From Cytophagales bacterium (GTDB lineage: Bacteria > Bacteroidota > Bacteroidia > Cytophagales > Thermoflexibacteraceae), in assembly GCA_013299115.1 (NCBI GenBank), contig JAAFKA010000014.1, positions 64,001-128,000 on the forward strand: 64,000 nt of DNA, in the 5' to 3' direction. Below the pieces are notes generated by a model, which did not search any database, was not told the DNA's origin, and worked only from the letters and a program-made list of their open reading frames with translations. Positions 6,366-63,054 of this stretch are shown here, in pieces; position 1 is the stretch's first letter; the number at the start of each line of letters is the position of its first letter. The position numbers and the translations under genes are program-made.

Positions 6366-6562
6366 TTAATAGAGGTTATTACGATTTGTACCATACCCTT
6401 CAGGCTGCAAGGTCAATTAGCTGAAAATCAACGGGTTAATTTTCTATACAAAAATTATCGTAATAACCTCTAATTATCAAGTATTTTTTAAAATTATAAC
6501 TTAAGTAGTTAGACTTAAATAATCGATAATATTTCAAGTGCTAAGTATCTGATTATCAAAAT

Positions 6563-6590
6563 TATCCGACACCTCAAAGGTGTCGGATAA
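6563..6590 (-). terminator. Family C hairpin (ttatccgacacc-N-ggtgtcggataa) immediately downstream of ribH
   Basis: Perfect 11-bp stem followed by a ttttg tract on the minus strand. The same hairpin recurs at 12813-12843 and inside the CDS at 51141-51171. Confidence 0.45.
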
Positions 6591-6611: not shown

Positions 6612-7109
6612 CTATTTTGTTCTGCTCTGTTCTTTTAATCCTAACATTTTTATAGCTGTAATAGCTGCCTCGTCGCCTTTGTTGCCATGTTTGCCACCTG
6701 CCCTGTCCAAGGCTTGCTGCATTGTATCAGGAGTTAAAACACCAAAAATAACAGGCTTGTTGTATTCCAGACTGACCTGTGTAATACCCATAGCAACAGC
6801 TTGACATATAAAATCAAAGTGGCGGGTTTCTCCTTGAATGACACAACCCAAAGCAATAACAGCATCTACTTCCTTTTGCTGGGCAGCAAATTGTGAGCCT
6901 AAACTTAGCTCAAAACTACCTGATACATCATACCGATTAATCAGTTCTGGGTTTGCACCATATTTGAGCAAGGTACTGCAAGCTCCTTCATATAAAGCAT
7001 TAGTAACTTCGCTGTTCCACTCGGCTACTACTAGCACAAATTTTTTTTGACCAATATCAGGCAAGTTATTAGCTGAATAGACACTTAGGTTCTTATTAAT
7101 AGAGGACAT
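6612..7109 (-). CDS. ribH: 6,7-dimethyl-8-ribityllumazine synthase
   Basis: 165 aa. The KFVLVVAEWNSEVT...GANPELINRYDVSGSFEL pattern is typical of RibH. Confidence 0.9.
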   Translation of the reverse strand: MSSINKNLSVYSANNLPDIGQKKFVLVVAEWNSEVTNALYEGACSTLLKYGANPELINRYDVSGSFELSLGSQFAAQQKEVDAVIALGCVIQGETRHFDFICQAVAMGITQVSLEYNKPVIFGVLTPDTMQQALDRAGGKHGNKGDEAAITAIKMLGLKEQSRTK

Positions 7110-12719: not shown

Positions 12720-12733
12720 GTTTTTAGGTTAGA

Positions 12734-12914
12734 TACGTTGGCAATGGCTTAGGCAGCCCCGTCCAAACCTTGACAATCGTACCTAACCCAAATAGTTACA
12801 CTAAAAAATCATTTATCGGACACTTTGAAAGTGTCCGATAAATTAAATTTTCCAAATTCATTTAGGTACGATTGTCAAGGTCTGGACGGGGCTGCCTAAG
12901 TCATTGCCAACGTA
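12734..12914. repeat. Family A palindromic element: 53-bp inverted arms (tacgttggcaatgg...ccttgacaatcgtacctaa) enclosing a family C hairpin
   Basis: A near-perfect inverted repeat is seen directly. Related copies are at 17821-18040, 22768-22860, 52581-52615 (half) and 55149-55238. Confidence 0.8.
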
Positions 12915-18040: not shown

Positions 18041-18069
18041 AATACAAAAAAATTTAAACACTTAAAATT

Positions 18070-22760: not shown

Positions 22761-22767
22761 GTTTTTT

Positions 22768-24798: not shown

Positions 24799-25228
24799 AA
24801 AAACAAAATTTCGGCAGTTTTTTGAACTATTGGCAGGGCTGAAAAAGCCATTGCCAAAGTTCAAAAAAGCCAATGCCGAGGTTGCAGTTTTGTAACCATC
24901 AGCAGTGGTAAAACTAACGTAGGGACGAAATAGTGCAAGCTATTTTGTTCCTACGTTAGTTTTACACCAGCCTACTTAGAGAGGTTTTGCTATAAATATT
25001 TCGTGCCTAAAGGCACTAAAAGATATGATTTATAGCTATAGTAAGTCTAATACTTATTTTGTAAAGCTATTTTTTTGCGTAAATCCTGACTCTATTATTG
25101 TTTAATCTTTAAACAAAAACAGAAAAAACACTTCAAAAATTGTTTAATAAAAAAATATTTTATAACTTGCCAAGTTGCTATTGCAAACAAGCTACCACAA
25201 ATATTTAACCCAACATTCGGCATTTTTT

Positions 25229-29806: not shown

Positions 29807-30734
29807 GCCTTTTCTGTCCATGAGATACATTGATATTTCAAAACTCACACTTCCTGCTGGTTGGTTGGTAACTGCCAATACTGCCTTAGCTACTTTGCTT
29901 ACAAAGAGCAAAAGAGAAAGAAATGACTTTATAAATTCTAAACAGTCCACTACTTGGAAAGACAAAAAATTGGTTAGTGCTTTAACCGAATTAGTTAATC
30001 CTGCAATGGAAAAATGTTGGTATTCTGAAACCAAAATTAGTGATGATTTAGATATAGACCATTTTCGCCCCAAAGGACACAATGAAAGACTATCATTTAG
30101 AACTCAATTTGAGGAGCATTTAGAAAAAAGACATTTTGAGGAGATTGATACAGAGGTTAATATGGGTTGGTGGTTTTTGGCTTTTGAACCTACTAATTTT
30201 AGAGTAGCTTCGCCCCACAGGAATCAATTACGCAGAAATAATACAAATGAAAGAGCAAAAGGAAAGTCTGATTTTTTTCCTTTGAAAAAAGGTAGCCCCG
30301 TTGCCACTAATCACTATGGGGTAGCAGACGAAATAAATTGCCTTTTAGACCCTTGTAATCCTCATGATGTAGAACTTTTAATTTTTGATAGCAATGGGGA
30401 CATTTTTAAAAATCATACAGATACATGGATAGAATGTAGAATTAATATTTCTATTGTGGTCTATCATTTAGACGAAGCAAAATTGAAAAATGGTCGCCAA
30501 CAAGTTTGGACAAATACAGAAAAATATATCATACAGCCATTAGTTGAGTTAGTAAAAGATACTTCTTTTTCTAATGAAAAGAAGTTACAAGAGGTTAATA
30601 AATTGCAAAATCATTTTTATACTGATTTTGCAGATACAAAAAGGGAGTTTTCTGCTGTTGCCATAGACTGTCTTCGCCATCATCAAAAAAAACATCCTTG
30701 GTTGGATAGATTTCTCCCCAACTTGACAAAATAA
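29787..30734 (+). CDS. HNH nuclease of the TIGR02646 / PtuB-like type
   Basis: 315 aa. CWYSETKISDDLDIDHFRPKGH resembles the retron/Septu-associated HNH family. Overlaps the ATPase stop. An alternative start is at 29820. Confidence 0.55.
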   Translation: MITKIFKPFLSMRYIDISKLTLPAGWLVTANTALATLLTKSKRERNDFINSKQSTTWKDKKLVSALTELVNPAMEKCWYSETKISDDLDIDHFRPKGHNERLSFRTQFEEHLEKRHFEEIDTEVNMGWWFLAFEPTNFRVASPHRNQLRRNNTNERAKGKSDFFPLKKGSPVATNHYGVADEINCLLDPCNPHDVELLIFDSNGDIFKNHTDTWIECRINISIVVYHLDEAKLKNGRQQVWTNTEKYIIQPLVELVKDTSFSNEKKLQEVNKLQNHFYTDFADTKREFSAVAIDCLRHHQKKHPWLDRFLPNLTK

Positions 30735-30790: not shown

Positions 30791-33700
30791 TTACTGCAAA
30801 TTAAATCTCAACTGAATCCCAAACGAAGTATTAGTCCGTCTGAAAGAATTGGAAACATAAGGGGCATTGATAGCGTGGTCGAAATAGAACTGCAAACTTG
30901 CCCGTTGGTTAATCACGTAGTTAATCGTCGGGCGAATTTGGAGGTTGTAGTTGCCTTGTGTTACCGTACTTTCTTGAATTTCCTCGCCGCTTGCCAACGT
31001 CTTAATGCTGCGTTGGGCAGTTTTGGTATCTCTGATGGTGAAGGCACAGGCAAAAGTCAAGTCGTTTTTCAGAGTTCGATAGTTGCCCCTAATTTTAAAC
31101 GGAATTTTGAAGTTTGATTTTACAAAACCAATATTCATCACAATTTCGTTGTTTCGCAATTCGGTAACTTGGGCATTCATCATGTTCATCGCAAGTCCAC
31201 GATTCATATTATACCGCACATCTATCGAGATATTTTTGGCTGTTTTTATCCGCACACCCACCAAAGGTGCAAAACCTTCGGTGATTGTAACTTGATTCAT
31301 CACAAAAACAGGAGTCAAACGGTTGGTATTGGCATCGAGTTTGGCGAGGGGCAAGTTCTGCAAATCTATGTTTAGTCGCAACAGCGAGGGGTCTGTAAAC
31401 GCCAACGAAGATTGGTAGCCTCCTGTGCTGTACTCCGAAGTATAGGCGTGTTCTATCTGAATAGAACGGAAATAAGGTTTCAAAAACGGCAAATTCGACA
31501 AGCCGTTGTAGGTCAATTTCCAGTTTGGCAACGGAATGGCGGGAAAAGCCGACAAACTTTGGTTGCTCACACTGCTGCCACTATACGCCGCCAAAAACGA
31601 AGGAATTAACACGTCTTGGGCATTTCTGTCGTAAGTGCCTTCGGTGTTTCGACTGTCCAAACTCTGTTTTACTGTTTGGCGGTTGCGAATAAACTCATCG
31701 AACAAGGGCGAATTGTTGGCTGCATTATCTCCTGTAAACATGGTGGCTAACGAAAAATAGGTAATAGCATATTGCCCACTTCGCTGCGGTGTTTGCGTTA
31801 CAAAAGCATCGGCAGTTCGGTTATAGGTAAACAATTCTTGGTAAGTTGCCATGTTGGTTCTTCGGGCATTGACCATGAGTTGCATATCTTTCACAGGCTC
31901 AATCACAGCTTCTATCCGCAAAGTTTGGTTAGTTCCTTGCCCAAACGTATTATTTTGCAAGGCACTTTTGCCCAACCATTCTCTTTTGGCTGCGGTTTCT
32001 TTTATGGTAGGGTCTTGGCTACCAAACACAAAGCCCCAACCAGGGGAGTTGAAAGCTGAACTCATACCAAAAGCCCCCGTAGGTGTGGTTAGCACCCCTG
32101 GCAAGGCTGTATTGTTGGTTTCGGTGTAAGAGAAGTTAATTTTTTGCACCATCATCATGCCTTTGAGCAAAGTACGCATAGGGCTGCTCACTGGTTTGGT
32201 AGAGTTTTGGTCAAGTCTTTCTTTGTCTGCCACTTCTGCCAATTTCTTTTCAATTTTCTCTAATCTTTTGTCAAATTTTTCGTTTTTCTTTGCAAATTTT
32301 TCACGCACTTTTTCAGACAACAGGCTGCTGTCGGCTTGGGCTTCTGCTTTCAGGCTGTCCATTTTGGCTGCCAATCTGTCTTTGCGTCCTTCTATTCGTT
32401 TTTTGCGAGCCTCCAAACGCAATTTTTTTCCTGCATATTTCGATGGCAAAGGTTCTTTTGCCTTGCGAGGGTCGGCAACAGCTGCCAAGACTCTACTTTT
32501 TTCGTAGAGTTTTTTCATGTCGAGTTGTCCGTTGATAGCCACGTTTTGGTTGTTCAGCATATTGTTGCCCAAACTATCTGCCAAACCTACTGCACCTGCC
32601 TGCCAAGTGTAACCTGCGGTGTATTTCACATCAGAGGCAACCCAATTTACAACAGGAAACTTGTCAAATGGCAATTTGTAGGTTACGCTGGTGGTCTGCA
32701 CAAAGTTTTTGATACGACCCAAATTGAGCAAATTGTTTAATACCGAGTCTCTTTTGGTTCTGTTGCTAAAACGGTTGGCTTGTGTGCCGTCTATTTCTCC
32801 TGCGGGTTCGTCTATAATTGCCTGTGCCTGTGCCGTATAGTCTAAACGCAAACTTTTGGTAATAGACCAAGCTAATTGGTAACTTCTATTAAAAGTAAAG
32901 GCTTTTTCGTACAGGGGCAATACGCCCAAGGTGCTTAATTGCCCATCTCTCAGTTGAGTTTTCACAAATCTCCTTTCAAAATCTCCGCGTACTGTTACAG
33001 TATTTGGCAAAGGTGCAAAGTTAAAATCTTTGATAAATTTCAAATATTTGCCTTCCAAATTTTGGTTTTTCTTAAAGGGTTCTATCGCAGGCACTTGACT
33101 ATTAAATTGGTATTGCAAACCCAGTCGGGTGTTTTCTTGCTTGTATTCGGCTGTCCGCACATTGCTACTTACCCTTTCCATATAAGCAAAATTCAATGCC
33201 CAATTTTCCACACTCCAAGGCTTAGGTTTCTTTTGCCCTACTGCATTTTTGCCCACATTCTGGAAGGCAATAGTACGCATATTCATATCTTCCCGCACCA
33301 AATCGAGGTATTCTTGCCTGTTGTCTTTTGCATCGAGGGCTTGCGTGAGGGGCATATCGGGGTCAAGGGGATTGAAGTACGGAGTCAAGAGTCGTCTTTC
33401 CATGCCCAAATACATAGGAAGTCGCCAGCCCCATTTGTTGAGTCCAAATTTTTCTAATTGGATTTGCATATTGAGGTCATATTCTAAGGTGTGGTTTCGA
33501 GTTCTTTGCGAAATTTTGTCTTGAATACCTCCAAAAAATGGCGAAACATAGCGGAAACTTGCGTTTATCCTTGCCAAATCTGCCAACTGCACCTGCAAAC
33601 TTGTACGGCTTGCCCAGCCTGCTTCGGTGTTAAATTCGGCTACACGCAATTCGTTTGCCCAGATACAAACAGATTTTGGTTGCAAGTCTGCTGATTCGGG

Positions 33701-36700
33701 GTTTCTCACGCCAATCATTGCCGTTTGCACACTACTCAAATCGGGATTGCCAATGACTGTAATTTTAAATCTGCCTACAATCTCCGAATAAGGCACACGA
33801 ACAGAAAGGCGTTGGTTGTTTCTCCTCGATTTTACATCTATTAAATCTGCCGTTGCCACGTCTATTTCGTTTTCTTGAGGCCACACCACGTTCACGTCTG
33901 TACTGCCAAAAGGTGTCATTTTCAAAGGTACTTCTATTTCATAGTAGTTTTCTTTAAAGTCTGTTCCCAAACGCAAAAATGCAACCATTTCGCCATCTTT
34001 GGCATCTCTACTTTCTGCGTGCAAAAACATTTTGACCCTTTTGTAATTGACCATATCTAAAATCAAATTTTTATAGACTGCCTTTGCATCTTTTTCGGGC
34101 AAGGCATCTACGCACATACGCAAAGACTGTTCATTCAACCTTGCTTGGGTGGCTGCACCTACCAAATTCAAATCACGAGTAAAACCCGGCGGCAACATAT
34201 AAGGTGTAATAGTTCCATCGGCTTTTGGTGTGCCGTTATTGACAATATTGATAGAAGAAACACGCAAATTATTGGTTGTGGCAGGTTCAGGAGGCAAGTT
34301 TAGCCCTGGTGTTTGCAAACTTTCGGTAAAAGGTCGCCAAGGTGTGCCTACAAATTGGAAACGAGCCATACGCAAGACTACGGGCTGTTGCCAATCTGTC
34401 ATATACATACGGATATAACGTATGGATTTGAAACCATCAATAGCACCAACTTTATTCGTAAAATCACGCACAGGAATACGGAACTGATACCATGTAACTC
34501 TGTCGGGATTGGTAGCCGTAGGGTCTGTTACCACCTTGTCCACCACATAAGGGCTGTTTTCTACTTGATTGGGGCGAAGGTCTATTTTGTATTCGTAATA
34601 GCCGTCGAGGTCATTCAAGGAATTATCACGATTAAGGTCTTCGTTGTCGGGCAAAGTAGAGTAAGAGGCAGTCCCTGCATTTTCAGGCGAATTGTTTTCC
34701 ATACCATTAAAAAATTTATAACGGTCGAGGATTTTATAGTCTAATTGGTCTGCTTTGTTGCCCAAATAATAGCTGAAATTGTCGTTAGAAGGGTCATTTT
34801 GTATCTCACGATAGACATCAGGCGTAACTCTGCCTTGCACTGCTTGCAAATAATCTGTAAATTTTTGTCTTTCTACTTCGTCATTGATACCGTCCATGCC
34901 CACGTCTTGCAATGCCCTGGTGCCTGTGCCACCCGAAAAAGCATTGGTTAAAAACTGCTGTTCGGTTACTCTGCCCCATGCCGTTTCTTTTATCCTGTCT
35001 AAATTGTTGGCTTCGGTAGGCAAACCATTTTCGAAACCATGACGACTATCAGGAATTACATCTTCCGATACATTGCCCAAGTTAAAATACAATTCGCCAC
35101 CTGTCGTGTTGTTTTCGGCTTGCACCTGTCCGTTTACCAATTTGGAAATTACCCTACCATTTGTACCTCTAATAAAAGGGTCGAGCAACCAAAATTCTAC
35201 GTATTGAATGTTGATGTTATCAAAATCTACATCAGAAGTAATGCCTTTGGTAATAGCCCCAAAATTGCTGCGAGGATTTGGCAACGTACCATCAGGATTG
35301 AGCAAAGGATTGTAATTGTATTGCCCTCTTTCGTTAGGGTAGTAGGCAATGTTCATTACCTGTTCGGGCAGGTTTATCTGCATGGCATCAGGTTTTACAA
35401 TTTCGTTGAACGGAATTAACCGAACATAGTGGTTTTCTTTGTCCTCTGGCGTAATATTGGGCGGCGGACTTCCACCTGAAACAGTCTGGAAAAAAGAAGT
35501 AAAATCTATGGTGTACCAAGAAGTTTTGGCACGTCTGTAACCATATTCCAAAGGTCTGTTCGGATTAAAGATGGGTCTGAATTGGTTGGGCGTAGAGCCT
35601 AAAATCCACGTGGTGGGTTGCCTTCCTAAGTCATAAGGAATTTCGGCAGCCTCGAAATCGTCTATGAACGAAGTACCGCCATCTTTGCCTATGAGTTGGT
35701 TGGTGCTGGGCAGCAAGGCAGCCACCTCCGAAGAAAAGGTATAACTCGACTTTTCTTTGGTGCTGTATAAGGGCAATTTGTCCACCAAACGAGTGAGCAA
35801 ACGAGCATCATCTTTGCGGTGCTGCACCCCCAAACCGACCAAACTATTGCGTGTAGGCTCACTACCAATGTTCACCCTTGTTATCAAAGGTCTTTCGTTG
35901 AGGTGCATAGCCGTTGCGGTAAATCTTGTATTTTTCGACAAGAAATATTGGGCATCTAAACCAAAGAAATTGCGAGTTTGGAAACTAAACAAGTCGGCTC
36001 TTTCGTATTGTATCCTTATTTCTTTGCCCGAAGCCAACAACTCAGGTCTTAGGATATTGACAACTCCCGATTGGTAATCTGCACTAAAATCTGTACCTTC
36101 TCTCAACAACGTGCCACCTGCCGTTATCTGAATAGAACGAGGGGCAATGTTAATTCCTGGTAGGCGAATAGACGTGCCACTGGTGGAGGCTTGGAAACTT
36201 CCTTTGATAAAAAATTTGCTTTTACTTGTCAAAAGTTGTGCGTCCATTTGCGTTTTGCGATACAACTCATTGAACACATATTTTTGGCGAAATTGCAATT
36301 CTTCTTCGGGCAAAAACTTTTCGTCTAAGGTACGCCCAAAAGGTTCGAGAACAGGGAAAATGATACGCCCAAATTCGGGATATATGGTTACGGGTGCAGC
36401 CACGCCTGATGTACCCGCCAAGTTGCTTTGGTTAGCCGCCGCACCTGTGTTGCCTACCTGCGTAGTGGGGAAAGGATTGGTATTTGCCCCGCCTGTGGTG
36501 CTGGGTATGTTGTTGAAACTCGAAGGCGTAAAACTATTGGCTACACTTTGCGAACTTACCCCTGCAATAAAGTCAAAATTGCCATCGGGCTGCGGGTCGT
36601 TGTTTTGGTTGAGCCTGTCCACACCAAAAACTTGCACCAACGGCACATTTTTGAGGTTTCTGCCCTCTTGCAAGTTCGGATTGTCTATGCCTGTGAGGTC

Positions 36701-38452
36701 ATCACGATAAATAATGCGTAATTGGAAATTATCTCTACTAACTTGATTGGTATTTAAGCTATAAATATTTTTCATCATCAAATCCCAAGTCGGCAAATCT
36801 AAACGAATGGTCGAGGGTTTGAGCATTTTCATCATAATCACGTCAGTAGCACCCAAACTTTGGTATTTTTCGGTCAATTCGCCTACCGTATAGCGTTGTC
36901 CTTTGTAGGTATATTCGTAAGAAACCGCCACAATTTCGTCATTGCGGACAGGAGTTTGCAAACTGATATAGCCCAGCGTAGGGTGAAACGTAAATTCATT
37001 GGGTGCTAAACGGCGTGCTGCCCGCAATACTTCGTAATCTGTACCTTTTTCGAGGGTAAATTGTCCGTTTAAGATATTGCTAATGTCGTCTATTCCTCTG
37101 ATGCCTGTGGTCTGGTCTAATCTTTTATAAAGCAAATTGGCATCATTGGAAGCAGCCTCAAAAGTGGGGTTGCCCTGCCCTATGTTGGGGTTGTTGCGGT
37201 TAAAAGGTTTGTGATTGCCCAAATCTAAGAAAGCAGCCACATTTCGCAAACTTTGCGTATTGGCAACTCTGTTGGTAACATACACCTCCACCCGCGTAAC
37301 CTGTACGCCACTTGTAATCATAGGAATAGTCCGCAAAGAAGCCTCGTAGTTATTGCGGAAAAAATCGGCAAGGAAAAAGTGTCTGTTAAAATCGTATTGG
37401 TCTGCACGCAACTCAAATTCACGTTGTTGTCCGCCGCCACGCAATACCATGACCTCCTGCGTACCTCTTTGGTTGGCAGCAGCCATATTCACTATCAATT
37501 TGCCAAATTGCAACTTGGTTTGAATACCCAACAAATTTTGGGCACCTGTTATCAAACTATTGCTGGATTGCATATTGACGTTGCCCACGTTTAGCTCTTT
37601 TATAATGCCTGCTTCGCCACTGGTAAGGTCTGGCACGCCACTATTCAACCCTGGTACGGTGGGCAAACTGTAACTAATCCGAAAGACGTTATCGAATTGG
37701 AAAGTGCTGCGGGTGTCCCAGTTGATGTTTACACGCAACCTTTCGCCAATAGACCCCGCCAAACTCAACCGAATTTGTTGGTCGAAAAACAAACCGCCAT
37801 TGGTCTGTTGCTGCACAGGAATTTGCGGATTTTCTATGCTCTGCCACCTTCCTCCAACGTCTAACAACACCTGCCCCATGGGTTTGATGTCTATGTTGTC
37901 GCCACCAAACAATTTAGCTGCCAAAGGTGGCAATTTGTAGATAGGGACTAACCTGTTTTTGTCTTTTCCACTCAAATTGGTAGCCCCTGTAATCACATCT
38001 TTGTTTGCCCAATAACGGCGGCGTGCCGAATCGTATTTATAGCGTTGGTACTCTTGAAAAGACAGAGAACTTGGTGTTTTGTAGGGCAAAGTAGCAATTT
38101 TTTCGTTTACTTGGTAGCCTTTGCCTGTGGAGTCTAAGGTTACAGTTGTTTTTTGGGAAGGAAACGGCAAATTGAGCAAAGGCGACGACCTGCGGCGGGC
38201 AGGTGTACTAAAACCCGAATACGGAGAACCTTGTCTATCTTGCTGATAAACAGGCAACTGATTAGAAGTAGGAGGATTTTGGGGAAGGGGCAAGATAGGT
38301 GGGGGCGGAGAATCAAGAGCCACCATAGCCAGCCTTCGGTTAATTCTCTCTGGTTCAAAAGGTTTTTTTTCTACCCATTTTGCATAAGAAATACCATACA
38401 CACACACGCCACAGCAGGCAAAGAGGGCAAACCACAATTTTTTATTGAGCAT
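30791..38452 (-). CDS. sprA: T9SS outer-membrane translocon / gliding motility protein SprA (Sov)
   Basis: 2553 aa with a signal peptide. Size, composition and the N-terminal region are typical of Bacteroidota SprA. Confidence 0.85.
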   Translation of the reverse strand: MLNKKLWFALFACCGVCVYGISYAKWVEKKPFEPERINRRLAMVALDSPPPPILPLPQNPPTSNQLPVYQQDRQGSPYSGFSTPARRRSSPLLNLPFPSQKTTVTLDSTGKGYQVNEKIATLPYKTPSSLSFQEYQRYKYDSARRRYWANKDVITGATNLSGKDKNRLVPIYKLPPLAAKLFGGDNIDIKPMGQVLLDVGGRWQSIENPQIPVQQQTNGGLFFDQQIRLSLAGSIGERLRVNINWDTRSTFQFDNVFRISYSLPTVPGLNSGVPDLTSGEAGIIKELNVGNVNMQSSNSLITGAQNLLGIQTKLQFGKLIVNMAAANQRGTQEVMVLRGGGQQREFELRADQYDFNRHFFLADFFRNNYEASLRTIPMITSGVQVTRVEVYVTNRVANTQSLRNVAAFLDLGNHKPFNRNNPNIGQGNPTFEAASNDANLLYKRLDQTTGIRGIDDISNILNGQFTLEKGTDYEVLRAARRLAPNEFTFHPTLGYISLQTPVRNDEIVAVSYEYTYKGQRYTVGELTEKYQSLGATDVIMMKMLKPSTIRLDLPTWDLMMKNIYSLNTNQVSRDNFQLRIIYRDDLTGIDNPNLQEGRNLKNVPLVQVFGVDRLNQNNDPQPDGNFDFIAGVSSQSVANSFTPSSFNNIPSTTGGANTNPFPTTQVGNTGAAANQSNLAGTSGVAAPVTIYPEFGRIIFPVLEPFGRTLDEKFLPEEELQFRQKYVFNELYRKTQMDAQLLTSKSKFFIKGSFQASTSGTSIRLPGINIAPRSIQITAGGTLLREGTDFSADYQSGVVNILRPELLASGKEIRIQYERADLFSFQTRNFFGLDAQYFLSKNTRFTATAMHLNERPLITRVNIGSEPTRNSLVGLGVQHRKDDARLLTRLVDKLPLYSTKEKSSYTFSSEVAALLPSTNQLIGKDGGTSFIDDFEAAEIPYDLGRQPTTWILGSTPNQFRPIFNPNRPLEYGYRRAKTSWYTIDFTSFFQTVSGGSPPPNITPEDKENHYVRLIPFNEIVKPDAMQINLPEQVMNIAYYPNERGQYNYNPLLNPDGTLPNPRSNFGAITKGITSDVDFDNINIQYVEFWLLDPFIRGTNGRVISKLVNGQVQAENNTTGGELYFNLGNVSEDVIPDSRHGFENGLPTEANNLDRIKETAWGRVTEQQFLTNAFSGGTGTRALQDVGMDGINDEVERQKFTDYLQAVQGRVTPDVYREIQNDPSNDNFSYYLGNKADQLDYKILDRYKFFNGMENNSPENAGTASYSTLPDNEDLNRDNSLNDLDGYYEYKIDLRPNQVENSPYVVDKVVTDPTATNPDRVTWYQFRIPVRDFTNKVGAIDGFKSIRYIRMYMTDWQQPVVLRMARFQFVGTPWRPFTESLQTPGLNLPPEPATTNNLRVSSINIVNNGTPKADGTITPYMLPPGFTRDLNLVGAATQARLNEQSLRMCVDALPEKDAKAVYKNLILDMVNYKRVKMFLHAESRDAKDGEMVAFLRLGTDFKENYYEIEVPLKMTPFGSTDVNVVWPQENEIDVATADLIDVKSRRNNQRLSVRVPYSEIVGRFKITVIGNPDLSSVQTAMIGVRNPESADLQPKSVCIWANELRVAEFNTEAGWASRTSLQVQLADLARINASFRYVSPFFGGIQDKISQRTRNHTLEYDLNMQIQLEKFGLNKWGWRLPMYLGMERRLLTPYFNPLDPDMPLTQALDAKDNRQEYLDLVREDMNMRTIAFQNVGKNAVGQKKPKPWSVENWALNFAYMERVSSNVRTAEYKQENTRLGLQYQFNSQVPAIEPFKKNQNLEGKYLKFIKDFNFAPLPNTVTVRGDFERRFVKTQLRDGQLSTLGVLPLYEKAFTFNRSYQLAWSITKSLRLDYTAQAQAIIDEPAGEIDGTQANRFSNRTKRDSVLNNLLNLGRIKNFVQTTSVTYKLPFDKFPVVNWVASDVKYTAGYTWQAGAVGLADSLGNNMLNNQNVAINGQLDMKKLYEKSRVLAAVADPRKAKEPLPSKYAGKKLRLEARKKRIEGRKDRLAAKMDSLKAEAQADSSLLSEKVREKFAKKNEKFDKRLEKIEKKLAEVADKERLDQNSTKPVSSPMRTLLKGMMMVQKINFSYTETNNTALPGVLTTPTGAFGMSSAFNSPGWGFVFGSQDPTIKETAAKREWLGKSALQNNTFGQGTNQTLRIEAVIEPVKDMQLMVNARRTNMATYQELFTYNRTADAFVTQTPQRSGQYAITYFSLATMFTGDNAANNSPLFDEFIRNRQTVKQSLDSRNTEGTYDRNAQDVLIPSFLAAYSGSSVSNQSLSAFPAIPLPNWKLTYNGLSNLPFLKPYFRSIQIEHAYTSEYSTGGYQSSLAFTDPSLLRLNIDLQNLPLAKLDANTNRLTPVFVMNQVTITEGFAPLVGVRIKTAKNISIDVRYNMNRGLAMNMMNAQVTELRNNEIVMNIGFVKSNFKIPFKIRGNYRTLKNDLTFACAFTIRDTKTAQRSIKTLASGEEIQESTVTQGNYNLQIRPTINYVINQRASLQFYFDHAINAPYVSNSFRRTNTSFGIQLRFNLQ

Positions 38453-50076: not shown

Positions 50077-52077
50077 ATGCCCATTTTTCTTTATTGTTCC
50101 CTTGCCCTGCCCTTGCTTTGCTTTGCAGGTTTGTTGGTAGGCGAAAAATATTTGCAAACTCCTGTTATTCAGCGTATTGTGGTGGTGGCAAGTCTGCTTA
50201 CCCTATGCTGTTGGTTGCCTGTGGCGGGCGAGGTTTTGCTAACAAAACAAGTGTGGCAACAACCTTTTGTTTGGTTTTCAGTAGGAGATTTTGCGGTGCA
50301 TGGCTTTTGGTTTATAGACCAATTCAATGCGTGGCTTTTGTTGATAACAGCTTTGGTTTTTACTTTGGTGTGTTTCTATGCAGCCTATACAATGCAAACC
50401 GAAAAGCACCTCAACCGTTTTTTTGCGTTTTTATTTCTTTTTGTGAGTGCCATGTACGGGCTGTTGCTTACCGATAATTTGCTGGTCATTTATGTTTGTT
50501 GGGAGTTGGTAGGCTTGTGTTCCTATTTGCTCATTGGTTTTTGGTACGAAAAACCTTTGGCTGTGCAAGCTGCAAAAAAAGCATTTTTGCTCAACAGAAT
50601 AGGAGATTTGGGCTTTTTGGCTGCTCTATCGGGCGTATGGGCTGCGTGCCACACGTGGAGTTTGCAAACCATAGCCCAGCACTTTCCCAACGCAGTTGCC
50701 CTGCCTTATTGGGAATTTATTTGTTTTGGGTTGGTGGTGGCTGCCTGTGCAAAATCTGCCCAATTTCCTTTTTCTACGTGGTTGCCCGATGCCATGCAAG
50801 CCCCTACGCCTGTGTCTGCCTTGTTGCACGCAGCTACTATGGTGGTGGCAGGGGCGTATTTGCTCATCAGAATTGAATTTCTATTACCCATTTCTTTGCA
50901 TCATTTGGTTTTAGGCATAGGTGCAATTTCGGCTCTTTGGGCTACTTGGTGTGCTTGTCACCAAACCGAAATGAAACGGATTTTGGCTTTCTCTACCATT
51001 TCGCAAATAGGTTTGGTCTTTGTAGCCTTAGGTTTGGGTGCAGTGCAGGCGGCTTGGTTTCATTTGCTTACTCACGCATTTTTTAAGGCAAACTTATTTT
51101 TAATAGTGGGTTGGTTGGTTACAAATACCAAACAAAATAATTTATCCGACTTCTCAAGGGTGTCGGATAAATATTTTTTTGTTCCTTATTGCTTATCGGC
51201 AGCAGCTTTAATTGGTGTGCCTCTTACTTCGGGTTTCTTGTCAAAAGAGCAAATTTTATTGGCATTGTTCGCAAAACTTGCTACTACACCTACATTTTAT
51301 TTGGGTTTCATAGCTTTTTTGGTGGTTTGTACCCTTGTTCTCACCACTTTTTACACCTTGCGACAATTTTTTTTGCTATTTGGTCAGGAAGTTTACCCCC
51401 ACAAGGCAGGCTCGATTGTTTCTTACCCCACCCCCCACTCCTCCTCTTCTGGGAGGGGAGAAAATCTACCCCTTTGGGGTAAAAATGACCTCGAAGAGGT
51501 CAAAAATTCCCCTCCCAGAAGGGGTGGGGCAGGGGGTGGGGTTGTTTTGGTAATCAATAGTTTAGCTATAGGCACGTTGTTTTTGCCTTTTTCTCTCAAT
51601 CCTTTGGCTGCTCCTTATTTTGTAACTACACCAATAATCACTACCACCTTGCAATTATTTACGTTGTTCATTTCACTTTTTTGCATTGGTTTAGGTTCTT
51701 GGCTTGCCTACCAAAATAGGAAACCTTCCAATCTAAAAAAGAAACTTTTGCTTTGGACAGTGCAGTGGACAAACTTCGACAACAAGTATATAGAAAAAAC
51801 AGCTACTCAACTACTTTTTTCTCCTCGTCTTGCCTTGTTCGAGCAGCAAATAGTCCACCGCTTAACAGATTCCGTAGCCATTGCGGGTATTGTGCAAGCC
51901 CATGTGTTGGCGTGGGCAGACCGTCAGTTGTTAGACGGCGTGGTGCGTGGCGTGGTCTTGTTGTTAGGCAAAATAGCAACCAGCATAAGAAGTTTGCAAA
52001 ACGGCAACCTCCAACAGTCCATTGCTTGGGCTTTAGTGGGATTAATTTTATTAGGGACTGGGTTATTTTTTTTATAA
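50077..52077 (+). CDS. NuoL/ND5/MrpA-family proton-pumping subunit homologue, standalone, with two in-frame palindromic-element insertions
   Basis: 666 aa. The N-terminal 300 aa match NuoL (MYGLLLTDNLLVIYVCWELVGLCSYLLIGFWY, HAFFKANLFL). The conserved HHEQDIRKMGGL region is replaced by sequence encoded by a family C hairpin (51141-51171). A G/C-rich ~120-bp palindrome (51425-51545) adds about 40 codons. Confidence 0.65.
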   Translation: MPIFLYCSLALPLLCFAGLLVGEKYLQTPVIQRIVVVASLLTLCCWLPVAGEVLLTKQVWQQPFVWFSVGDFAVHGFWFIDQFNAWLLLITALVFTLVCFYAAYTMQTEKHLNRFFAFLFLFVSAMYGLLLTDNLLVIYVCWELVGLCSYLLIGFWYEKPLAVQAAKKAFLLNRIGDLGFLAALSGVWAACHTWSLQTIAQHFPNAVALPYWEFICFGLVVAACAKSAQFPFSTWLPDAMQAPTPVSALLHAATMVVAGAYLLIRIEFLLPISLHHLVLGIGAISALWATWCACHQTEMKRILAFSTISQIGLVFVALGLGAVQAAWFHLLTHAFFKANLFLIVGWLVTNTKQNNLSDFSRVSDKYFFVPYCLSAAALIGVPLTSGFLSKEQILLALFAKLATTPTFYLGFIAFLVVCTLVLTTFYTLRQFFLLFGQEVYPHKAGSIVSYPTPHSSSSGRGENLPLWGKNDLEEVKNSPPRRGGAGGGVVLVINSLAIGTLFLPFSLNPLAAPYFVTTPIITTTLQLFTLFISLFCIGLGSWLAYQNRKPSNLKKKLLLWTVQWTNFDNKYIEKTATQLLFSPRLALFEQQIVHRLTDSVAIAGIVQAHVLAWADRQLLDGVVRGVVLLLGKIATSIRSLQNGNLQQSIAWALVGLILLGTGLFFL

Positions 52078-52551: not shown

Positions 52552-52861
52552 TGGTAAGCTGTTTAGGTGGCTTATTTTTATACGATTGTCAAGGTCTGCG
52601 ACCATTGCCAACGTATAAAAATAATCAATAAAAATAAATGTAAGATTTTTAGGAAATTTTTATTTTTTTTTATTCCTTGCAACAGAAATTTTTGAGGTTT
52701 TACCACAATTATTTCTTTTCATAGCTGGTTGAAAGAACTTGGGGACGTAGTTTTGTCCCCAAGTATGCTATGGCTGTTTTTGTATGTTGGCAAGGGTTTG
52801 GGCAACCTTAGCTTATATTTTTTGTCATTCTTCGCTACACTCAGAATGACAAAATACACTT

Positions 52862-54908: not shown

Positions 54909-55148
54909 GGATTGTAAGAGTTTTTCTTAGGTTTATTAATTCTAAATGCAAAATTAAGTATTAAAACGAGAATTTAAAAAAAAAAGGCAACAAAATAACT
55001 CCAAGAGTCATTTTGTATGTTACTTTCTTTGGTTTGCCGTAAAATTACAACTTTTTTTTAATTACAAAACCTCAAAAACAAAAATTTACAAAGTTTTTTT
55101 ATTTTGTTGGTCTAAAAGTCCAATTTAATAGGATTTGTAATCATTTAG

Positions 55149-55238
55149 GTACGTTGGCAATGGCTTAGGTAGCCCCGTCAAGACCTTGACAATCGTACCA
55201 CTATACGATTGTCAAGGTCTGCGACCATTGCCAACGTA
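55149..55238. repeat. Family A palindromic element
   Basis: tacgttggcaatggcttaggtagccccgtcaagaccttgacaatcgta ... tacgattgtcaaggtctgcgaccattgccaacgta. The right arm is identical to the 52581-52615 copy. Confidence 0.8.
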
Positions 55239-58086: not shown

Positions 58087-61000
58087 ATGCCCGATATTTT
58101 TATTTCTTACGGAAGAAAAGAGAGCAAAACCTTTGCCACCCGTCTGCACGACAGGCTGCTGGCAATGGGTTATGATGTATGGTTCGACCAAAACGACATT
58201 CCCTTAGCCGTAGATTTTCAGGAACAGATAGACGAGGGCATCCGCACCACGCCCAATTTTGTTTATATCATTTCGCCACACGCCATTATTTCGCCTTATT
58301 GTGCCAAAGAGTTGCAACTTGCCTACAAATATAGCAAAAGGATTATTCCTGTGATGCACGTGGACTCGGAGTACGACAGAATACCTGTGGTTATTCAAAA
58401 ACTGAATTGGATTTTGGCAAGGGAAAAAGCCGATTTTGCCCTACCACAAGCCGAATGGGAGGCAATAGACGACTTCGAAAAAGCCTTGCTGGGCTTGGTG
58501 GCTACGGTGGAAAGCCAAAAAGAATATGTTACCAAGCATACAGTTTTGTTGCAAAAAGCCTTAGAATGGGAGAAAAATAGAAAGCAAACAGCCTATTTGT
58601 TGGTGGGCGAAGAACGAAAAGATGCCGAAAAGTGGCTACTCACCAAAGATTTTTTCGATTATGTGCAAGACGATTTAGACAAGACCAAAACCAAAGAAGT
58701 GCGGGTTTTGCCACCTTGTCGTCCTTCGGATTTGCACGCTGAATTTGTGTGCGAAAGTCGCAAAAATGCCGAAAATTTGCTTTGCGATGTCTTTATTTCT
58801 CATGCTCAAACCGAAAAAGAATTACGCAATCAGATTGTGCGAACTTTGTCGCAATACAACATTACTTGTTGGAGTCCGCAAACCGACATCAAAACAGGGC
58901 AAGATTGGGACAAAAGTGTGGAGGAAAGCATAGAGCAAGCCGACAATTTTGTGTTTTTTATTACGCCTTACACTGTCAAAAACCAATTCTTTTTGCGGTG
59001 TTTGGCTCACGCCACTTTTTACCAAAAAAGAGTTATTCCTTTGTTGGTTTTGCCCACGCCTTTTGCCGATTTTCCAACAGAAATTAGCAAATTGACCTAC
59101 ATAGACATCACAGACAACCAAAGTACAGACGACTTGCGTGATGATTTGGATAGTTTATTGACCGAAGTAAACAAAGATTCTGTTTATTATTACCAACACA
59201 AGGTTTTGTTGGTGCAAGCCCTGAAATGGAAACGCCAAAACCAAAACCCAAGTATTTTGTTGCGAGGCTATAACTTGCAAACTGCCGAAGATTGGTTGAA
59301 ATTGGGCAACAAAAGAAACCAACACCGCCCACATGGTTTGCACGAGGAATATATCAATGAAAGCATAGCCAAAAGAGGGCAATTAGCCACCGAAGTTTTT
59401 ATTTCTTACTCACGCAACGATGGCGACCTTGCCCGCAAACTGAACAATGAATTGCAACTTTACGGCAAAACCACGTGGTTTGACCAAGAAAGTATAGTAG
59501 AAGGTGTAGATTTTGGCGATGAAATACGCAAAGGCATAGACAGTGCCGACAATTTTTTGTTTATCATTTCGCCCAAATCCATTGCCTCGCCTTATTGTGA
59601 TACGGAGGTGAGTCATGCAGTCAGGTCGGGCAAACGAATTATTACCGTATTGGCAGAGCCTTTGCCTGTTGCGGTGGCAGACGATTCTAACAAATTTCCT
59701 ATTTTGCACCCCGCTTTGGCAAGGGTGCAGTGGATTGACTTCAAAAAAAGTTTTTCTACGGGCATGGGGCAGCTGCTCCGCACCTTAGAAACCGACAGAG
59801 AATATGTGCAGCAGCATACCAAATGGGGCAAATCTGCAAACGAATGGTATGAAAAAGAAAAAAGTGCAGACTTGCTTTTGCGGGGCAACGAATATGCCTT
59901 AGCCGAAGCTTGGTTGAGCAAGGTGGCAGAGGCAGAGGAAAAAGGGCAAAAAAAACAACCTCACGTTACAGATTTACAGAAAGAGTACATAGCCGAAAGT
60001 CGCAAATTGATAGCAGCCGAAAGATTGGCAAAATTGCAAACCATTACCCGTTTGCGGTTCTTGTTAGGTATGGCAGCTTTGGGTTTATTGGTGGCGGTGG
60101 CAAGCACCATTTATGCTTTCAGGCAACGAAACGAAGCCCACAACAAAGCCGTTATTGCCGAAATCAATCAATTAGTTTCGTTGGCAAGACAAGTGCAAAA
60201 CGACAATCCTGCCTTAGCCTTGCGAATAGCCGAAAGAGCCTATAAAAAAGACTCTACGGCAAGTGTGCGGGGTGTGATACGTGATATTTTGAGTGATAAC
60301 ATTTTTTACCTCAACCTCGAAGGGCATGAAGGCAGTATTTTAAGCATTGCAGGTTCTCCCGATAGCAAACTCATAGCCACAGGTGGGCAAGACAATACGT
60401 TGCGACTTTGGAATCAATACGGCAAGGCTTTGCACACCCTCCAACTACACGAAAAACCTGTTACCAGCATAGAATTTGCCCACAATGGCAACTTTTTAGT
60501 TAGTGGTAGCGAAGATGGAACAGTGAAGTTTTGGGATACCGATGGCGTATTGTTTGGCAATATAGATTTGGGAGATGAGCAAAGAATATCCAATATCGAT
60601 GTTTCGCCCAACGATACGCAAATTTTGATTTGCACGCCTTTTGTGCAGGTGCAACCAGATACCATTAGGCTTTATAGTAGCAAAGGAGAATTGGTAAAAA
60701 ACATTGGCGGACACATCGGCGGCACGTGGAAAGCTATTTTTTCGCCTTCGGGCAAATATATTTTGACTTGTGGCTTGGCAGACAGCACCGCAAAGTTGCT
60801 CGACCACGAAGGCAATTTGTTGCGAACTATCAAAGGACACACAGGCATTGTGTTGGATATTGCTTTTTCGCCTGATGAAAATTATTTGGTTACAGCAGGG
60901 CAAGATTTTTTTGCAAAAGTATGGGACAGACGAAGTGGCAAAGAAATAAGCACCTTGCGAGGACACGCAGGCACTATTTTTTCGGTGGCTTTCTCTCCCG

Positions 61001-63054
61001 ATAACAAAAACATAGCCACGGCAAGTGCAGACAAAACTGCAAAAATCTGGAACTTAAAGGGAGAAGTCATCGAATCTTTTATGATTCACTCCAAAGTTGT
61101 TACTAGCCTTACTTTCTCCGCAAACGGCTACTACCTCTTTACAGCCAGCGAAGACGGCAAAGCTGCTTTGATAGATTTGAGAGGAAATGGCAAACAAACT
61201 TTCAAAGAAAATGGCGTAAACATAGAAGGAGCTTTGTTTTACCCAACGGCAAACGAAAGCTCTACCAAAGATTCTATTGGAAATTCTACTAAAAATATTG
61301 CCAATCAATCTACTTTTTTGGTTTCTTATTCGCCACTTTCAGGCTTGCATTGGTGGGATTCTACGGGCAAAGTTCACCAAAATCTCAATAACTTCGAAAC
61401 AGTTTCTTTGCTCAAATTGTCGCCTGATAAAAAAATGTTGCTCCTTTCCGATTTGCACAACCTTATCAAAATCACCGATTTGGAGGGGAAAATTATACAA
61501 AATTTGGAAATACCAGCCCAAGAAGCAAGTGCTATTAGTTCGGTAGTTTTTTCGCCTGATAGCAAATACGTGGCGGCGGCTAACTCCGAAAAAACCATAA
61601 GAATTTGGCAAACCAACGGCAAAGGGCTAAAATTCATACGTTTACAGGAAGACGATATGCTTTCTTGCATAGAATTTATGCCCGATGGCAAACATTTATT
61701 GATTGGAGGCTTAGACAATGTAATTCGGCTGATAGACCTCGATGGCAAGATAATTAAGCAATGGAAAGGACACGACGAAAGAATTTTATCTTTGGCAGTT
61801 TCGCCCAATGGTCGTTATTTTTTGAGTGGCAGCAGAGATGCTACGGTCAGGTTGTGGGCAGTCAATGGCGGTTTGGTCGAGTTGCTCAAAGGACACAGCA
61901 GCCCCATTACTTCGGTTGCTTTTTCCTCAAACGGCAAAAAAATATTGACAGCCTCAACGGACAACACCGCCCGAATTTGGGAGTTCAACGGACAGCAAAC
62001 TCAAGTTTTTAAGCATGATGACGTGGTAAATTCGGCTGTTTTTTCTCCCGATGACAAAACTGTTTTGACAGTGGCAAACAACGAGGCAAAACTTTGGTAT
62101 GCAGATTGGCGTGAGTTTTTGTCTGCCGACAGGGTAGCCAATTTTTCTTTGGCAGAATTAGCAAAAGCTGGGGTAGTGGTTGATTTTGAGGAGTTTAACG
62201 ACCAAGAAAATGCAAAAGATTTGGTGGACGCAGCCGAATATTACACAGGAGATTATGAAAGTAACGAAAAATTAGACGAAAAAATAAAGTCTAAACACGC
62301 CAAAACTTTGTTTCAAGAAGGATTGCGAATTTTGCTCGACACTGCCCAAACTAAAATAGAAGACCAAAATACGCAACTATTGAGCAGAGCCAAAATAGGT
62401 TTTGCAGAAGCCCAAGCCAAATTGGGTGAGCCTGTAAGTATGCAGCACTTCTTGAAGGCAAAAAATGCCGAAGAGGTTACGGCTTACATCAACTTTTTTG
62501 CCGTAAAACTCGAAAAAGCTACTTCCAAGCAAGACTCCGCCTTGCAAACCAACAACTTGAATGCAATGTATGAGGTGCTAATTAAAAAAACTGAAACCTC
62601 CGAAGACCTTTACAAATTTGCCCAGCAGTTTGAAAGACAGAGTGATGATGCCAACAACGCCGAAGCAGTGATGCGAAACGGAGAAATTGCGATTAAACTC
62701 TACGAAAAACTGTATGAAATGGACAAAGACGACAACACCCGACTCTCCGTAGCCAAACTCTGTACTTCGGTGGCGGGCTACAAACTCTTAGACAAAAACT
62801 TTATAGCAGCCCAGCAGTTTGCAGAAAGGGCTTTGACTTACGACAAAAGCAGGTTATTGGCTTACACTTATTTGGCTACTTCGTCCCTGTATTTGGGTCA
62901 ATTTGCAAGGGCAAAACAAATTTATTTGCAATACAAAGATACAACTTACAACGGTGCCTTGCTCAAAGAGGTTTTTCTAAACAGCATAGAGGCAATGACT
63001 GCCAAAGGTGTGGTTTTTTCAGATATAGAAAAGGCAAGGGAGTTGTTGAGGTAA
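58087..63054 (+). CDS. Multidomain protein: three tandem TIR domains, one TM helix, WD40 beta-propeller region (about 14 blades), C-terminal helical/TPR-like domain
   Basis: 1655 aa. TIR1 (DIFISYGRKES...SPYCAKEL). TIR2 (DVFISHAQTEKE...TPYTVKNQ). TIR3 (EVFISYSRNDGD...SPYCDTEV). TM LRFLLGMAALGLLVAVASTIYAF at about 60049-60120. Repeated GH/WD-like blades (LRLWN, VKFWD, AKVWD, AKIWN, IRIWQ, VRLWA, ARIWE). Confidence 0.8.
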   Translation: MPDIFISYGRKESKTFATRLHDRLLAMGYDVWFDQNDIPLAVDFQEQIDEGIRTTPNFVYIISPHAIISPYCAKELQLAYKYSKRIIPVMHVDSEYDRIPVVIQKLNWILAREKADFALPQAEWEAIDDFEKALLGLVATVESQKEYVTKHTVLLQKALEWEKNRKQTAYLLVGEERKDAEKWLLTKDFFDYVQDDLDKTKTKEVRVLPPCRPSDLHAEFVCESRKNAENLLCDVFISHAQTEKELRNQIVRTLSQYNITCWSPQTDIKTGQDWDKSVEESIEQADNFVFFITPYTVKNQFFLRCLAHATFYQKRVIPLLVLPTPFADFPTEISKLTYIDITDNQSTDDLRDDLDSLLTEVNKDSVYYYQHKVLLVQALKWKRQNQNPSILLRGYNLQTAEDWLKLGNKRNQHRPHGLHEEYINESIAKRGQLATEVFISYSRNDGDLARKLNNELQLYGKTTWFDQESIVEGVDFGDEIRKGIDSADNFLFIISPKSIASPYCDTEVSHAVRSGKRIITVLAEPLPVAVADDSNKFPILHPALARVQWIDFKKSFSTGMGQLLRTLETDREYVQQHTKWGKSANEWYEKEKSADLLLRGNEYALAEAWLSKVAEAEEKGQKKQPHVTDLQKEYIAESRKLIAAERLAKLQTITRLRFLLGMAALGLLVAVASTIYAFRQRNEAHNKAVIAEINQLVSLARQVQNDNPALALRIAERAYKKDSTASVRGVIRDILSDNIFYLNLEGHEGSILSIAGSPDSKLIATGGQDNTLRLWNQYGKALHTLQLHEKPVTSIEFAHNGNFLVSGSEDGTVKFWDTDGVLFGNIDLGDEQRISNIDVSPNDTQILICTPFVQVQPDTIRLYSSKGELVKNIGGHIGGTWKAIFSPSGKYILTCGLADSTAKLLDHEGNLLRTIKGHTGIVLDIAFSPDENYLVTAGQDFFAKVWDRRSGKEISTLRGHAGTIFSVAFSPDNKNIATASADKTAKIWNLKGEVIESFMIHSKVVTSLTFSANGYYLFTASEDGKAALIDLRGNGKQTFKENGVNIEGALFYPTANESSTKDSIGNSTKNIANQSTFLVSYSPLSGLHWWDSTGKVHQNLNNFETVSLLKLSPDKKMLLLSDLHNLIKITDLEGKIIQNLEIPAQEASAISSVVFSPDSKYVAAANSEKTIRIWQTNGKGLKFIRLQEDDMLSCIEFMPDGKHLLIGGLDNVIRLIDLDGKIIKQWKGHDERILSLAVSPNGRYFLSGSRDATVRLWAVNGGLVELLKGHSSPITSVAFSSNGKKILTASTDNTARIWEFNGQQTQVFKHDDVVNSAVFSPDDKTVLTVANNEAKLWYADWREFLSADRVANFSLAELAKAGVVVDFEEFNDQENAKDLVDAAEYYTGDYESNEKLDEKIKSKHAKTLFQEGLRILLDTAQTKIEDQNTQLLSRAKIGFAEAQAKLGEPVSMQHFLKAKNAEEVTAYINFFAVKLEKATSKQDSALQTNNLNAMYEVLIKKTETSEDLYKFAQQFERQSDDANNAEAVMRNGEIAIKLYEKLYEMDKDDNTRLSVAKLCTSVAGYKLLDKNFIAAQQFAERALTYDKSRLLAYTYLATSSLYLGQFARAKQIYLQYKDTTYNGALLKEVFLNSIEAMTAKGVVFSDIEKARELLR

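Follow-up and report, generated by a model that had tools for sequence, protein, structure and literature searches.

Two palindromic repeats read in frame within a divergent, stand-alone NuoL-like gene of a Bernardetiaceae-like Cytophagales bacterium

The classic case of palindromic DNA inserted in frame into coding genes is that of the Rickettsia palindromic elements (RPEs), reported by Ogata et al. in 2000 and treated in passages of two later papers (PMC10969869, PMC3733652). Repetitive extragenic palindromic sequences (REPs) also occur within genes in several phyla, where they add 7–80 residues, strike uvrA and uvrB twice and are biased toward repair and helicase genes, with UvrABCD over-represented and the bias itself unexplained (PMC3733652). 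Among their hosts is the antiporter-like protein MnhD of Rickettsia conorii, which contains a REP dimer at residues 350–378 (PMC3733652). For several MITEs (miniature transposable elements with inverted repeats; Correia, ERIC, Nezha, QMITE), in-frame fusions with host open reading frames (ORFs) are known as well (PMC10969869). Here we describe a nuoL-like gene from a 64,000-nt stretch of DNA of a Cytophagales bacterium (contig JAAFKA010000014.1, positions 64,001 to 128,000; the whole stretch is referred to as the window) that contains two palindromes in its coding sequence, a short hairpin termed element 1 and a 120-nt G/C-rich palindrome termed element 2.

Rickettsia and other bacteria thus provide precedents for in-frame palindrome insertion, which is seen here in a Bernardetiaceae-like lineage of the Bacteroidota. 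The window gene shares with RPE hosts, as far as the passages cited describe them, the in-frame, stop-free and fold-compatible placement of the inserted palindrome, RPEs being palindromic repeats of ~100–150 nt found in frame in unrelated housekeeping genes, some of which are hit twice. It differs from them in its host, which belongs to a free-living-type Bacteroidota lineage, in the G/C-rich composition of element 2 and its G-quadruplex-type motif within an AT-rich genome, and in that one gene is affected in 64 kb. The likeness is one of architecture, and homology with RPEs is not expected in a host that is Cytophagales-like by its glycyl-tRNA synthetase (GlyRS) and by its NuoL neighbours. 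We consider it probable that the two palindromes are REP- or MITE-like repeats tolerated in loops of a fast-evolving, divergent NuoL. Such a case extends selfish DNA in protein genes to Bernardetiaceae-like Bacteroidota and to a core bioenergetic membrane protein, with one gene struck by two unrelated repeat families; the current understanding of complex I and of mobile elements is left unchanged.

Two palindromes in one antiporter-like gene

The features on which the argument rests are the following.

50077..52077, + strand: nuoL-like ORF, 666 aa, 2001 nt, uninterrupted in the ORF listing
51141..51171: element 1, family C hairpin tttatccgacttctcaagggtgtcggataaa, 31 nt, with core 51144-51168 and an extended palindrome at ~51131-51183
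51424..51543: element 2, G/C-rich palindrome, 120 nt or 40 codons without stop, boundaries by family consensus
51467-51481 and 51486-51502: inner hairpins of element 2, tacccctttggggta and tgacctcgaagaggtca
51521..51541, + (sense) strand: right arm of element 2, G-quadruplex-type motif GGGGTGGGGCAGGGGGTGGGG
6562..6590: intergenic family C copy, 22 nt downstream of ribH (lumazine synthase; 6612..7109, - strand), counted from the stop
12813..12843: intergenic family C copy flanked by a TPR gene and gmk, in the middle of a 187-nt palindrome (12731-12917)

The 666-aa ORF encodes a complete, if divergent, antiporter-like subunit of the NuoL type. Its product passes the Pfam cut-offs for Proton_antipo_N (PF00662, 26.9 bits against 24.5) and Proton_antipo_M (PF00361, 216.2 bits against 21.5), and it aligns over residues 5-661 with the NCBIfam equivalog model NF005141 (410.3 bits, below the cut-off of 556) and over residues 9-659 with the subfamily model TIGR01974 (395.8 bits, below the cut-off of 407.5). 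The initial annotation had read a continuous 666-aa frame here, as we do, and had called it NuoL-like across its N-terminal half; the likeness holds, and the two NCBIfam alignments carry it well beyond that half. Sixteen transmembrane (TM) helices are predicted. An AlphaFold model, computed with a 17-sequence alignment as input and reaching a mean predicted local distance difference test score (pLDDT) of 75, contains the TM2-3 beta-hairpin, broken helices, a 60-residue helix at 582-641 and a last TM helix at 645-665, with both the lateral helix (HL) and the TM16 anchor present. These two features are what separates NuoL from NuoM and NuoN. Foldseek matches the model end to end with NuoL/ND5/NdhF chains, including that of E. 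coli, at target TM-scores of 0.77-0.79. Residues E143, K226, H251, H329, H333, K337 and K390 are invariant in the 17-sequence alignment; in the register against E. coli NuoL they correspond to the proton-path residues E144, K229, H254, H334, H338, K342 and K399 of the 3RKO literature. Set beside canonical NuoL/ND5 (E. coli NuoL, PDB 3RKO chain L), the window protein therefore shares the full-length fold, the proton-path residues, the TM2-3 beta-hairpin, the lateral helix and TM16, but lacks the H..HEQD.R.MGGL segment, is encoded outside a nuo operon, scores under the curated cut-offs and has 40 more residues in its TM13-14 loop.

Those 40 residues are element 2. It is laid out as a 37-nt arm, a 47-nt centre with the two small hairpins and a 36-nt arm, its arms (51425-51459 and 51508-51542) are 86% complementary, and a three-way junction is its predicted fold, with an energy of -87.3 kcal/mol (z = -7.7). 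In the frame used it reads as the G/P/S-rich peptide YPTPHSSSSGRGENLPLWGKNDLEEVKNSPPRRGGAGGGV, residues 450-489, in the TM13-TM14 loop; three of its six frames are open and three carry stops. When 51424-51543 is excised in silico, the frame stays open at 626 aa and the TM13-14 loop shrinks to 12 residues, as against ~15 in E. coli, and in the AlphaFold model pLDDT falls below 50 at residues 438-483, over element 2 and between the helices at 407-439 and 485-498. No homologue in the alignment carries anything like it. A stop-free, G/C-rich palindrome with internal hairpins and about 40 codons had been noticed before at this place, and the analysis fixes it at 51424-51543. The motif GGGGTGGGGCAGGGGGTGGGG is the sole (G3+ N1-7)x4 motif on both strands of the window, its four G-tracts are kept in every aligned member of the element 2 family, and it may form a quadruplex. 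A possible direct repeat, TTGTTT, surrounds the element at 51416-51421 and 51542-51547; the flanks of the other family copies show no common target-site duplication.

Compared with 1.84 billion representatives, the 40-aa peptide returned its own protein and two NUMOD3-like repeat proteins only, at E ~1e-4. The weak NUMOD3 likeness concerns the centre of the element (51457-51516, residues 461-480; GENLPLWGKNDLEEVK; matches P0246 and P0247, with E ~1e-4 summed over four repeats), and since its GENxPxWGK..EE pattern is not kept in the copies from a metagenome-assembled genome (MAG) described below, it probably arose by chance. A profile of element-encoded peptides found no candidates among 5.8 billion proteins. 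Rfam gave sub-threshold miRNA-hairpin matches alone and none at the gathering threshold, on which ground a structured-RNA family was rejected. An intein, an intron and a translational bypass were rejected too, as the frame is open across both elements and no signatures of these kinds were found.

Translation of element 1 yields NLSDFSRVSDK (residues 355-365, TM11-TM12 loop), which aligns opposite ...HHEQNIFKMGGLRKS... of E. coli NuoL in a segment that is 3 residues shorter than its E. coli counterpart. Residues 354-362 are non-helical in the AlphaFold model, and pLDDT below 50 at 356-359 coincides with the element. The hairpin at 51141-51171 and its intergenic copies at 6562-6590 and 12813-12843, all three recognised from the outset, share the register ATCSGAC-N11-GTCSGAT and A/T flanks, the copy at 12813-12843 having a compensatory CG>GC swap in its stem. 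Element 1 and the copy at 6559-6593 are identical at 30 of 35 positions, with the same stem and spacing; the two-copy hairpin pattern arose in none of 100 shuffles, and the fold z-scores of the three hairpins are -4.8, -6.5 and -8.0. None of 36 related loci contains a family C hairpin. The window loop exceeds the modal loop of its clade by 8 residues, which approximates the 24-25-nt hairpin core and is consistent with insertion of element 1 into a loop that was already short and motif-less. The stem is followed by TATTTTTTTG (51161-51181), giving a T7 run and a terminator-like layout in mid-gene; a scan for the intrinsic-terminator consensus does not flag it, the inner stem being interrupted.

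Both elements consist of whole codons, are free of stops in the frame used and are located in low-confidence loops (TM11-12 and TM13-14). Helix parity, with the beta-hairpin and the lateral helix of the E. coli structure as reference points, presumably places both loops on the cytoplasmic side. Neither insert is present in any homologue examined. The TM11-12 and TM13-14 loops of NuoL would thus tolerate 8-40 extra residues, which would be useful for engineering and tagging.

Relatives of element 2 outside the window

A scan of the genome collection with the inner arms of element 2 found three sites in one Bernardetiaceae MAG, JBIKRY01. Two of the three are confirmed between ORFs and the third lies in AT-rich sequence at a contig end. 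The MAG composite unit is again 37+47+36 = 120 nt with the layout of the window copy, to which its arms are identical at 32/37 and 35/36 positions, and its 47-nt centre holds two hairpins of different sequence. MAG copies read GAACTACCAACCCC...GGGGTTGGTAGTTC, with CTAC/GTAG four bases outside the arms, and window copies are untagged. In the same MAG a UvrD-like helicase gene has an in-frame short variant of 66 nt, which encodes NPTPSPSGRGVKNPLPEGEEG and folds at -52 kcal/mol. The 120-nt unit is itself nested in a repeat of ~300 nt (L005 344-634; L007 2172-2450) that is 88% identical between the two contigs and has inverted ends of its own, CTATCGATTACCCACAA.

A metagenome scan found near-identical termini, CAACCCCACCCCC-NN-CCCCTCCCC-NN-CTGGGAGGGGAG..., in contigs of ~52% G+C. 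The coding regions with in-frame copies are listed here.

L007 3975-4045: short variant of element 2, inside ORF 2535-4859 (- strand)
L019 1806-5924, - strand: ORF with in-frame ~52% G+C relatives of element 2
L027 403-3501, - strand: ORF with in-frame ~52% G+C relatives of element 2
L010 6716-10102, - strand: ORF with in-frame ~52% G+C relatives of element 2

In a UvrA ORF one in-frame relative separates the UvrA_inter domain from UvrA_DNA-bind, an SNF2 protein has one upstream of its helicase core, and a DUF559-helicase ORF has three (aa 139-181, 704-749 and 899-941). Measured from AACCCC to GGGGTT in L010, L012, L014, L015, L019, L025 and L027, the ~52% G+C copies are 104, 116 or 128 nt long, lengths that are 12 nt apart, with a few deviating termini and one L019 copy of ~137 nt, and those in frame add 35, 43 or 45 codons. 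These figures are hints of a modular centre and of a translation-compatible length class in this subfamily. A literature search for the G-rich termini of element 2 yielded nothing relevant.

With non-coding copies in the MAG, in-frame copies elsewhere and absence from homologues, the suggestion in the initial annotation of in-frame palindrome insertion as in RPEs is borne out for element 2. Its closest structural parallels are with REPs, their dimers (REPINs) and MITEs. The arms of element 2 are short palindromes in their own right (CCCCTCCC-N5-GGGAGGGG), inverted as in a REP dimer, whereas REPINs do not have its fixed 47-nt centre with two extra hairpins; element 1 for its part resembles a REP in being a single hairpin of 29-33 nt with family copies downstream of genes. 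The REP dimer of MnhD, at 350-378, falls roughly at the loop of element 1, a position equivalence that is presumed and not derived from an alignment. Relatives of element 2 in UvrA, UvrD-like, SNF2 and other helicases show the same target bias as intragenic REPs, and so echo a preference for repair genes that is still unexplained. Unlike REPs, the window copies have neither a GTAG nor a CGTC tag (in the MAG copies CTAC/GTAG lies four bases beyond the arms), and no gene for a REP-associated tyrosine transposase (RAYT) is found among the scanned ORFs of the window. MITEs are partly matched by the 120-nt length of element 2, its terminal inverted repeats of ~36 nt, its non-autonomous nature and its family copies in non-coding DNA. 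The MITE definition asks for terminal inverted repeats, 70-300 bp, non-coding sequence and multiple copies, and element 2 has one copy in the window and more in the MAG. It departs from MITEs in showing no clear target-site duplication, only the possible TTGTTT repeat, and element 1 is too short for one. No parent insertion sequence with matching termini was identified, though no search was aimed at one. Hairpin-dependent transposition of the REP/RAYT or MITE type would account for the direction and mechanism of insertion.

A bolder reading, which we regard as possible but hardly probable, would have the locus stand for two novelties at once, an undescribed family of G-quadruplex-bearing palindromic mobile elements spread across lineages and a fast NuoL clade working without the TM11-12 motif from a lone gene. 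The candidate family would be recognised by the termini AACCCCACCCCC-NN-CCCCTCCCC-NN-CTGGGAGGGGAG and their reverse complement. With 35-45 codons contributed by each copy read in frame, and a unit length of exactly 120 nt both in the window and in the MAG, the lengths suggest elements built to be translatable. On this bolder reading they may persist by preference in genes for helicases and repair and, in the present case, in a membrane subunit of respiration.

The NuoL clade and constraint on the gene

Whether tolerated insertion, the reading we favour, is apt for this gene depends on how its relatives have evolved. The survey covered the 120 best homologues plus cluster members, and the TM11-12 loop was scored where it could be extracted. 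The sequence FFKANLFL without the TM11-12 motif marks a clade of 16 proteins, that of the window included.

P0001-P0011, P0021, P0044, P0122-P0125: clade without the TM11-12 motif

The motif, H-x3-H-[EQ]-Q-[DN]-[IM]-x2-M-G-G-L, is missing from the window protein and its 15 nearest homologues, and the remaining homologues with an extractable loop keep it, a few missing the strict pattern by single substitutions only. None of the 15 other clade members has the hairpin of element 1 or a comparably stable one at that site. As all 15 lack both motif and hairpin, loss of the motif is a trait of the clade and not an effect of the hairpin, and the earlier proposal that the hairpin had replaced the HHEQD motif is contradicted by this and by a segment 3 residues shorter than that of E. 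coli. Strongly conserved though it otherwise is, the HEQD..MGGL loop can evidently vanish throughout a clade on which purifying selection continues to act. The TM11-12 segment ranges from 38 to 51 residues in the clade, with a mode of 38 (six members), and has 46 (+8) in the window protein versus 48 in canonical NuoL. Since the loop shows 4-residue indels within one 90% cluster (P0005, +4) and a tandem EKQVEKQVEK in P0002, it is an indel hot spot in this clade. An unrelated palindrome of A/T-rich sequence, GTTTTTTATC...GATAAAAAAC, occupies the same TM11-12 position in the P0010 gene (L029 ~1640-1680); it may be a chance occurrence in DNA of such composition.

The gene stands alone. It is preceded by genes for TerD, YajC and a TPR histidine kinase and followed by those for RecX, a metallophosphoesterase and an outer-membrane beta-barrel protein, and no second nuo gene occurs among the 38 scanned ORFs of the window (the ORF at 30791-38452 lay outside the scan). 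The initial annotation had placed the gene between a histidine kinase and recX and outside any nuo operon, which agrees with these neighbours, and had counted the position as a sign of decay, an argument that loses its force because the nuoL-like gene is also alone in 4/4 relatives with readable surroundings. These four contexts share no nuoL synteny with the window. A lone NuoE-like gene 6 kb from the nuoL-like gene of one relative suggests that nuo genes are scattered in the group.

The NuoL clade is under purifying selection, with ratios of nonsynonymous to synonymous substitution rates (dN/dS) of 0.087 (P0005/P0006), 0.29 (P0002/P0003) and 0.19 (P0006/P0010) in pairs of members; on these values of 0.09-0.29 within the clade, the gene family is not decaying. 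For the window gene itself dN/dS is ~0.3 against P0002 and P0010, compared with 0.04 for GlyRS, a figure that is unreliable because dS between the window nuoL and its relatives is saturated. The proteins nearest to window NuoL are 41-50% identical to it, and none in the protein collection exceeds 50%; an exact look-up of the 666-aa protein gave no record. Calibration rests on GlyRS, the sole gene shared with the related MAG among the loci compared. Between the window and a relative in sample 3300044640 this enzyme is 92.6% (aa) and 86.6% (nt) identical (dN 0.042, dS 0.96), and a GlyRS identity of 92-93% applies to relatives in samples 3300044640 and 3300059473. P0010, the best match among NuoL-like proteins in sample 3300044640, is 42% identical to window NuoL (dN 0.57), and its contig and the GlyRS contig likely belong to the same relative, as they share sample and repeats and were both deposited at NCBI. 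The clade evolves fast yet is under constraint. The window copy itself is probably still functional, as its frame is intact, the conserved residues are kept and each insert adds whole codons without a stop and keeps to a loop; it is presumably expressed and assembled into complex I.

On the reading of tolerated insertion, the following history would apply. A clade of Bernardetiaceae-like Cytophagales would have lost the TM11-12 motif long ago, its nuoL standing alone, and later, in the window lineage, two unrelated palindromic repeats would have entered the coding sequence and stayed. Element 1, a hairpin of ~30 nt found otherwise downstream of genes, would have lengthened the variable TM11-12 loop by ~8 residues, and element 2, a 120-nt REPIN/MITE-like palindrome, would have given the TM13-14 loop exactly 40. 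Inserts breaking the frame or a helix would have been purged, which may be why only loop inserts are seen. Also in favour of this reading, strong hairpins are heavily excluded from genes in the window: 35 of the 45 lie in its non-coding 17%, and the two in nuoL are the sole intragenic ones belonging to recognised repeat families.

Weighing the readings, and other repeats of the window

Several observations count against tolerated insertion. Element 2 is single-copy within the window, neither insert shows a clear target-site duplication, and the scanned ORFs of the window include neither a RAYT nor any other transposase gene (no transposase family match among the 38, again with the ORF at 30791-38452 outside the scan). 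No empty-site allele was found for either insert, the protein collection holding no orthologue above 50% identity. The case for insertion of element 1 consists solely of its family membership and of 8 residues gained relative to short-loop clade members, and relative to canonical NuoL the element brings no net length gain. The protein misses both NCBIfam NuoL cut-offs, and its amino-acid divergence is ~13 times that of GlyRS against what is apparently the same relative (dN 0.57 versus 0.042), which is compatible with relaxed constraint. In the mRNA, the -87 kcal/mol structure, the G-quadruplex motif and the hairpin with its T7 run could all lower expression.

The initial annotation had offered two choices, a tolerated insertion variant or a decaying paralogue, and of these the former fits much better, the latter being at odds with purifying selection in the clade and with the kept proton-path residues. 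We judge it improbable that the gene is a non-functional paralogue in decay while its task falls to a canonical nuoL at another place in the genome. Such decay would explain the sub-threshold NuoL scores, the missing TM11-12 motif, the isolation from nuo neighbours, the 41-50% identity to the nearest proteins in a genome whose GlyRS is 93% identical to that of relatives, and a dN/dS of ~0.3 against P0002 and P0010 where GlyRS has 0.04. It would also explain that, of the ten strong hairpins inside ORFs of the window, two fall in this one gene. Yet the 2001 nt are open without a frameshift, the lateral helix and TM16 are kept along with the proton path, motif loss and lone position are clade-wide in a clade under clear purifying selection, and the 0.3 figure suffers from saturated dS. 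Whole-codon, stop-free inserts restricted to loops form a post-selection pattern, the more so as 3/6 frames of element 2 carry stops.

For element 1 taken singly, we think it unlikely, and somewhat more so than decay, that no insertion took place and that the segment is a native, fast-drifting loop, or the product of local duplication or gene conversion, whose likeness to the intergenic hairpins is secondary. Speaking for a native loop are a segment no longer than that of canonical NuoL, the indels and tandem duplications of the TM11-12 region (EKQVEKQVEK in P0002, +4 in P0005), the unrelated A/T-rich palindrome at the same place in P0010, and a family C of three known copies, all in the window and none in the 36 related loci. 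It is harder to square with the 30/35 identity to 6559-6593 in stem, spacing and A/T flanks, unmatched in 100 shuffles; the other copies are intergenic, which makes a coding origin unlikely, and the 8 residues over the modal clade loop match the 24-25-nt core. Least credible of all is an assembly artefact, a repeat-induced chimera or fold-back that put one or both palindromes into nuoL. Both elements are repeats, short-read assemblers may join contigs at repeats, and the source is probably a draft assembly, its contig being 135,664 nt long, but the flanks of each element are colinear with NuoL (TM11 then TM12, TM13 then TM14), the frame is exactly kept, and in-frame copies of the same family arise independently in other assemblies.

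The window holds further repeats and genes. A second palindromic family, with arms ACGTTGGCAATGG...CCTTGACAATCGT, is present at 12731-12917, 22763-22865, 17821-18041, 52572-52624 and 55145-55221, and its copy at 12731-12917 has the family C hairpin at its centre, so that the two palindromes are nested. Tandem 52-nt units at 22012-22524 and 22869-22949 consist of small hairpins (GTGCCGTTAGGCAC, GTCCCGATAGGGAC) followed by ATATTGGTAG; they are GTAG-ended and REP-like, and the MAG copies of element 2 are bordered by a tag of similar kind, CTACCAA/TTGGTAG. The larger coding regions are these.

18070-21942: 1290-aa DUF285-repeat protein with a type IX secretion system (T9SS) sorting tail
25175-30734: type I restriction-modification genes (HsdM, HsdS), then an AAA_15/AbiEii-like ATPase
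30791-38452: 2553-aa ORF, outside the domain scan
58087-63054: 1655-aa protein with TIR and WD40 domains

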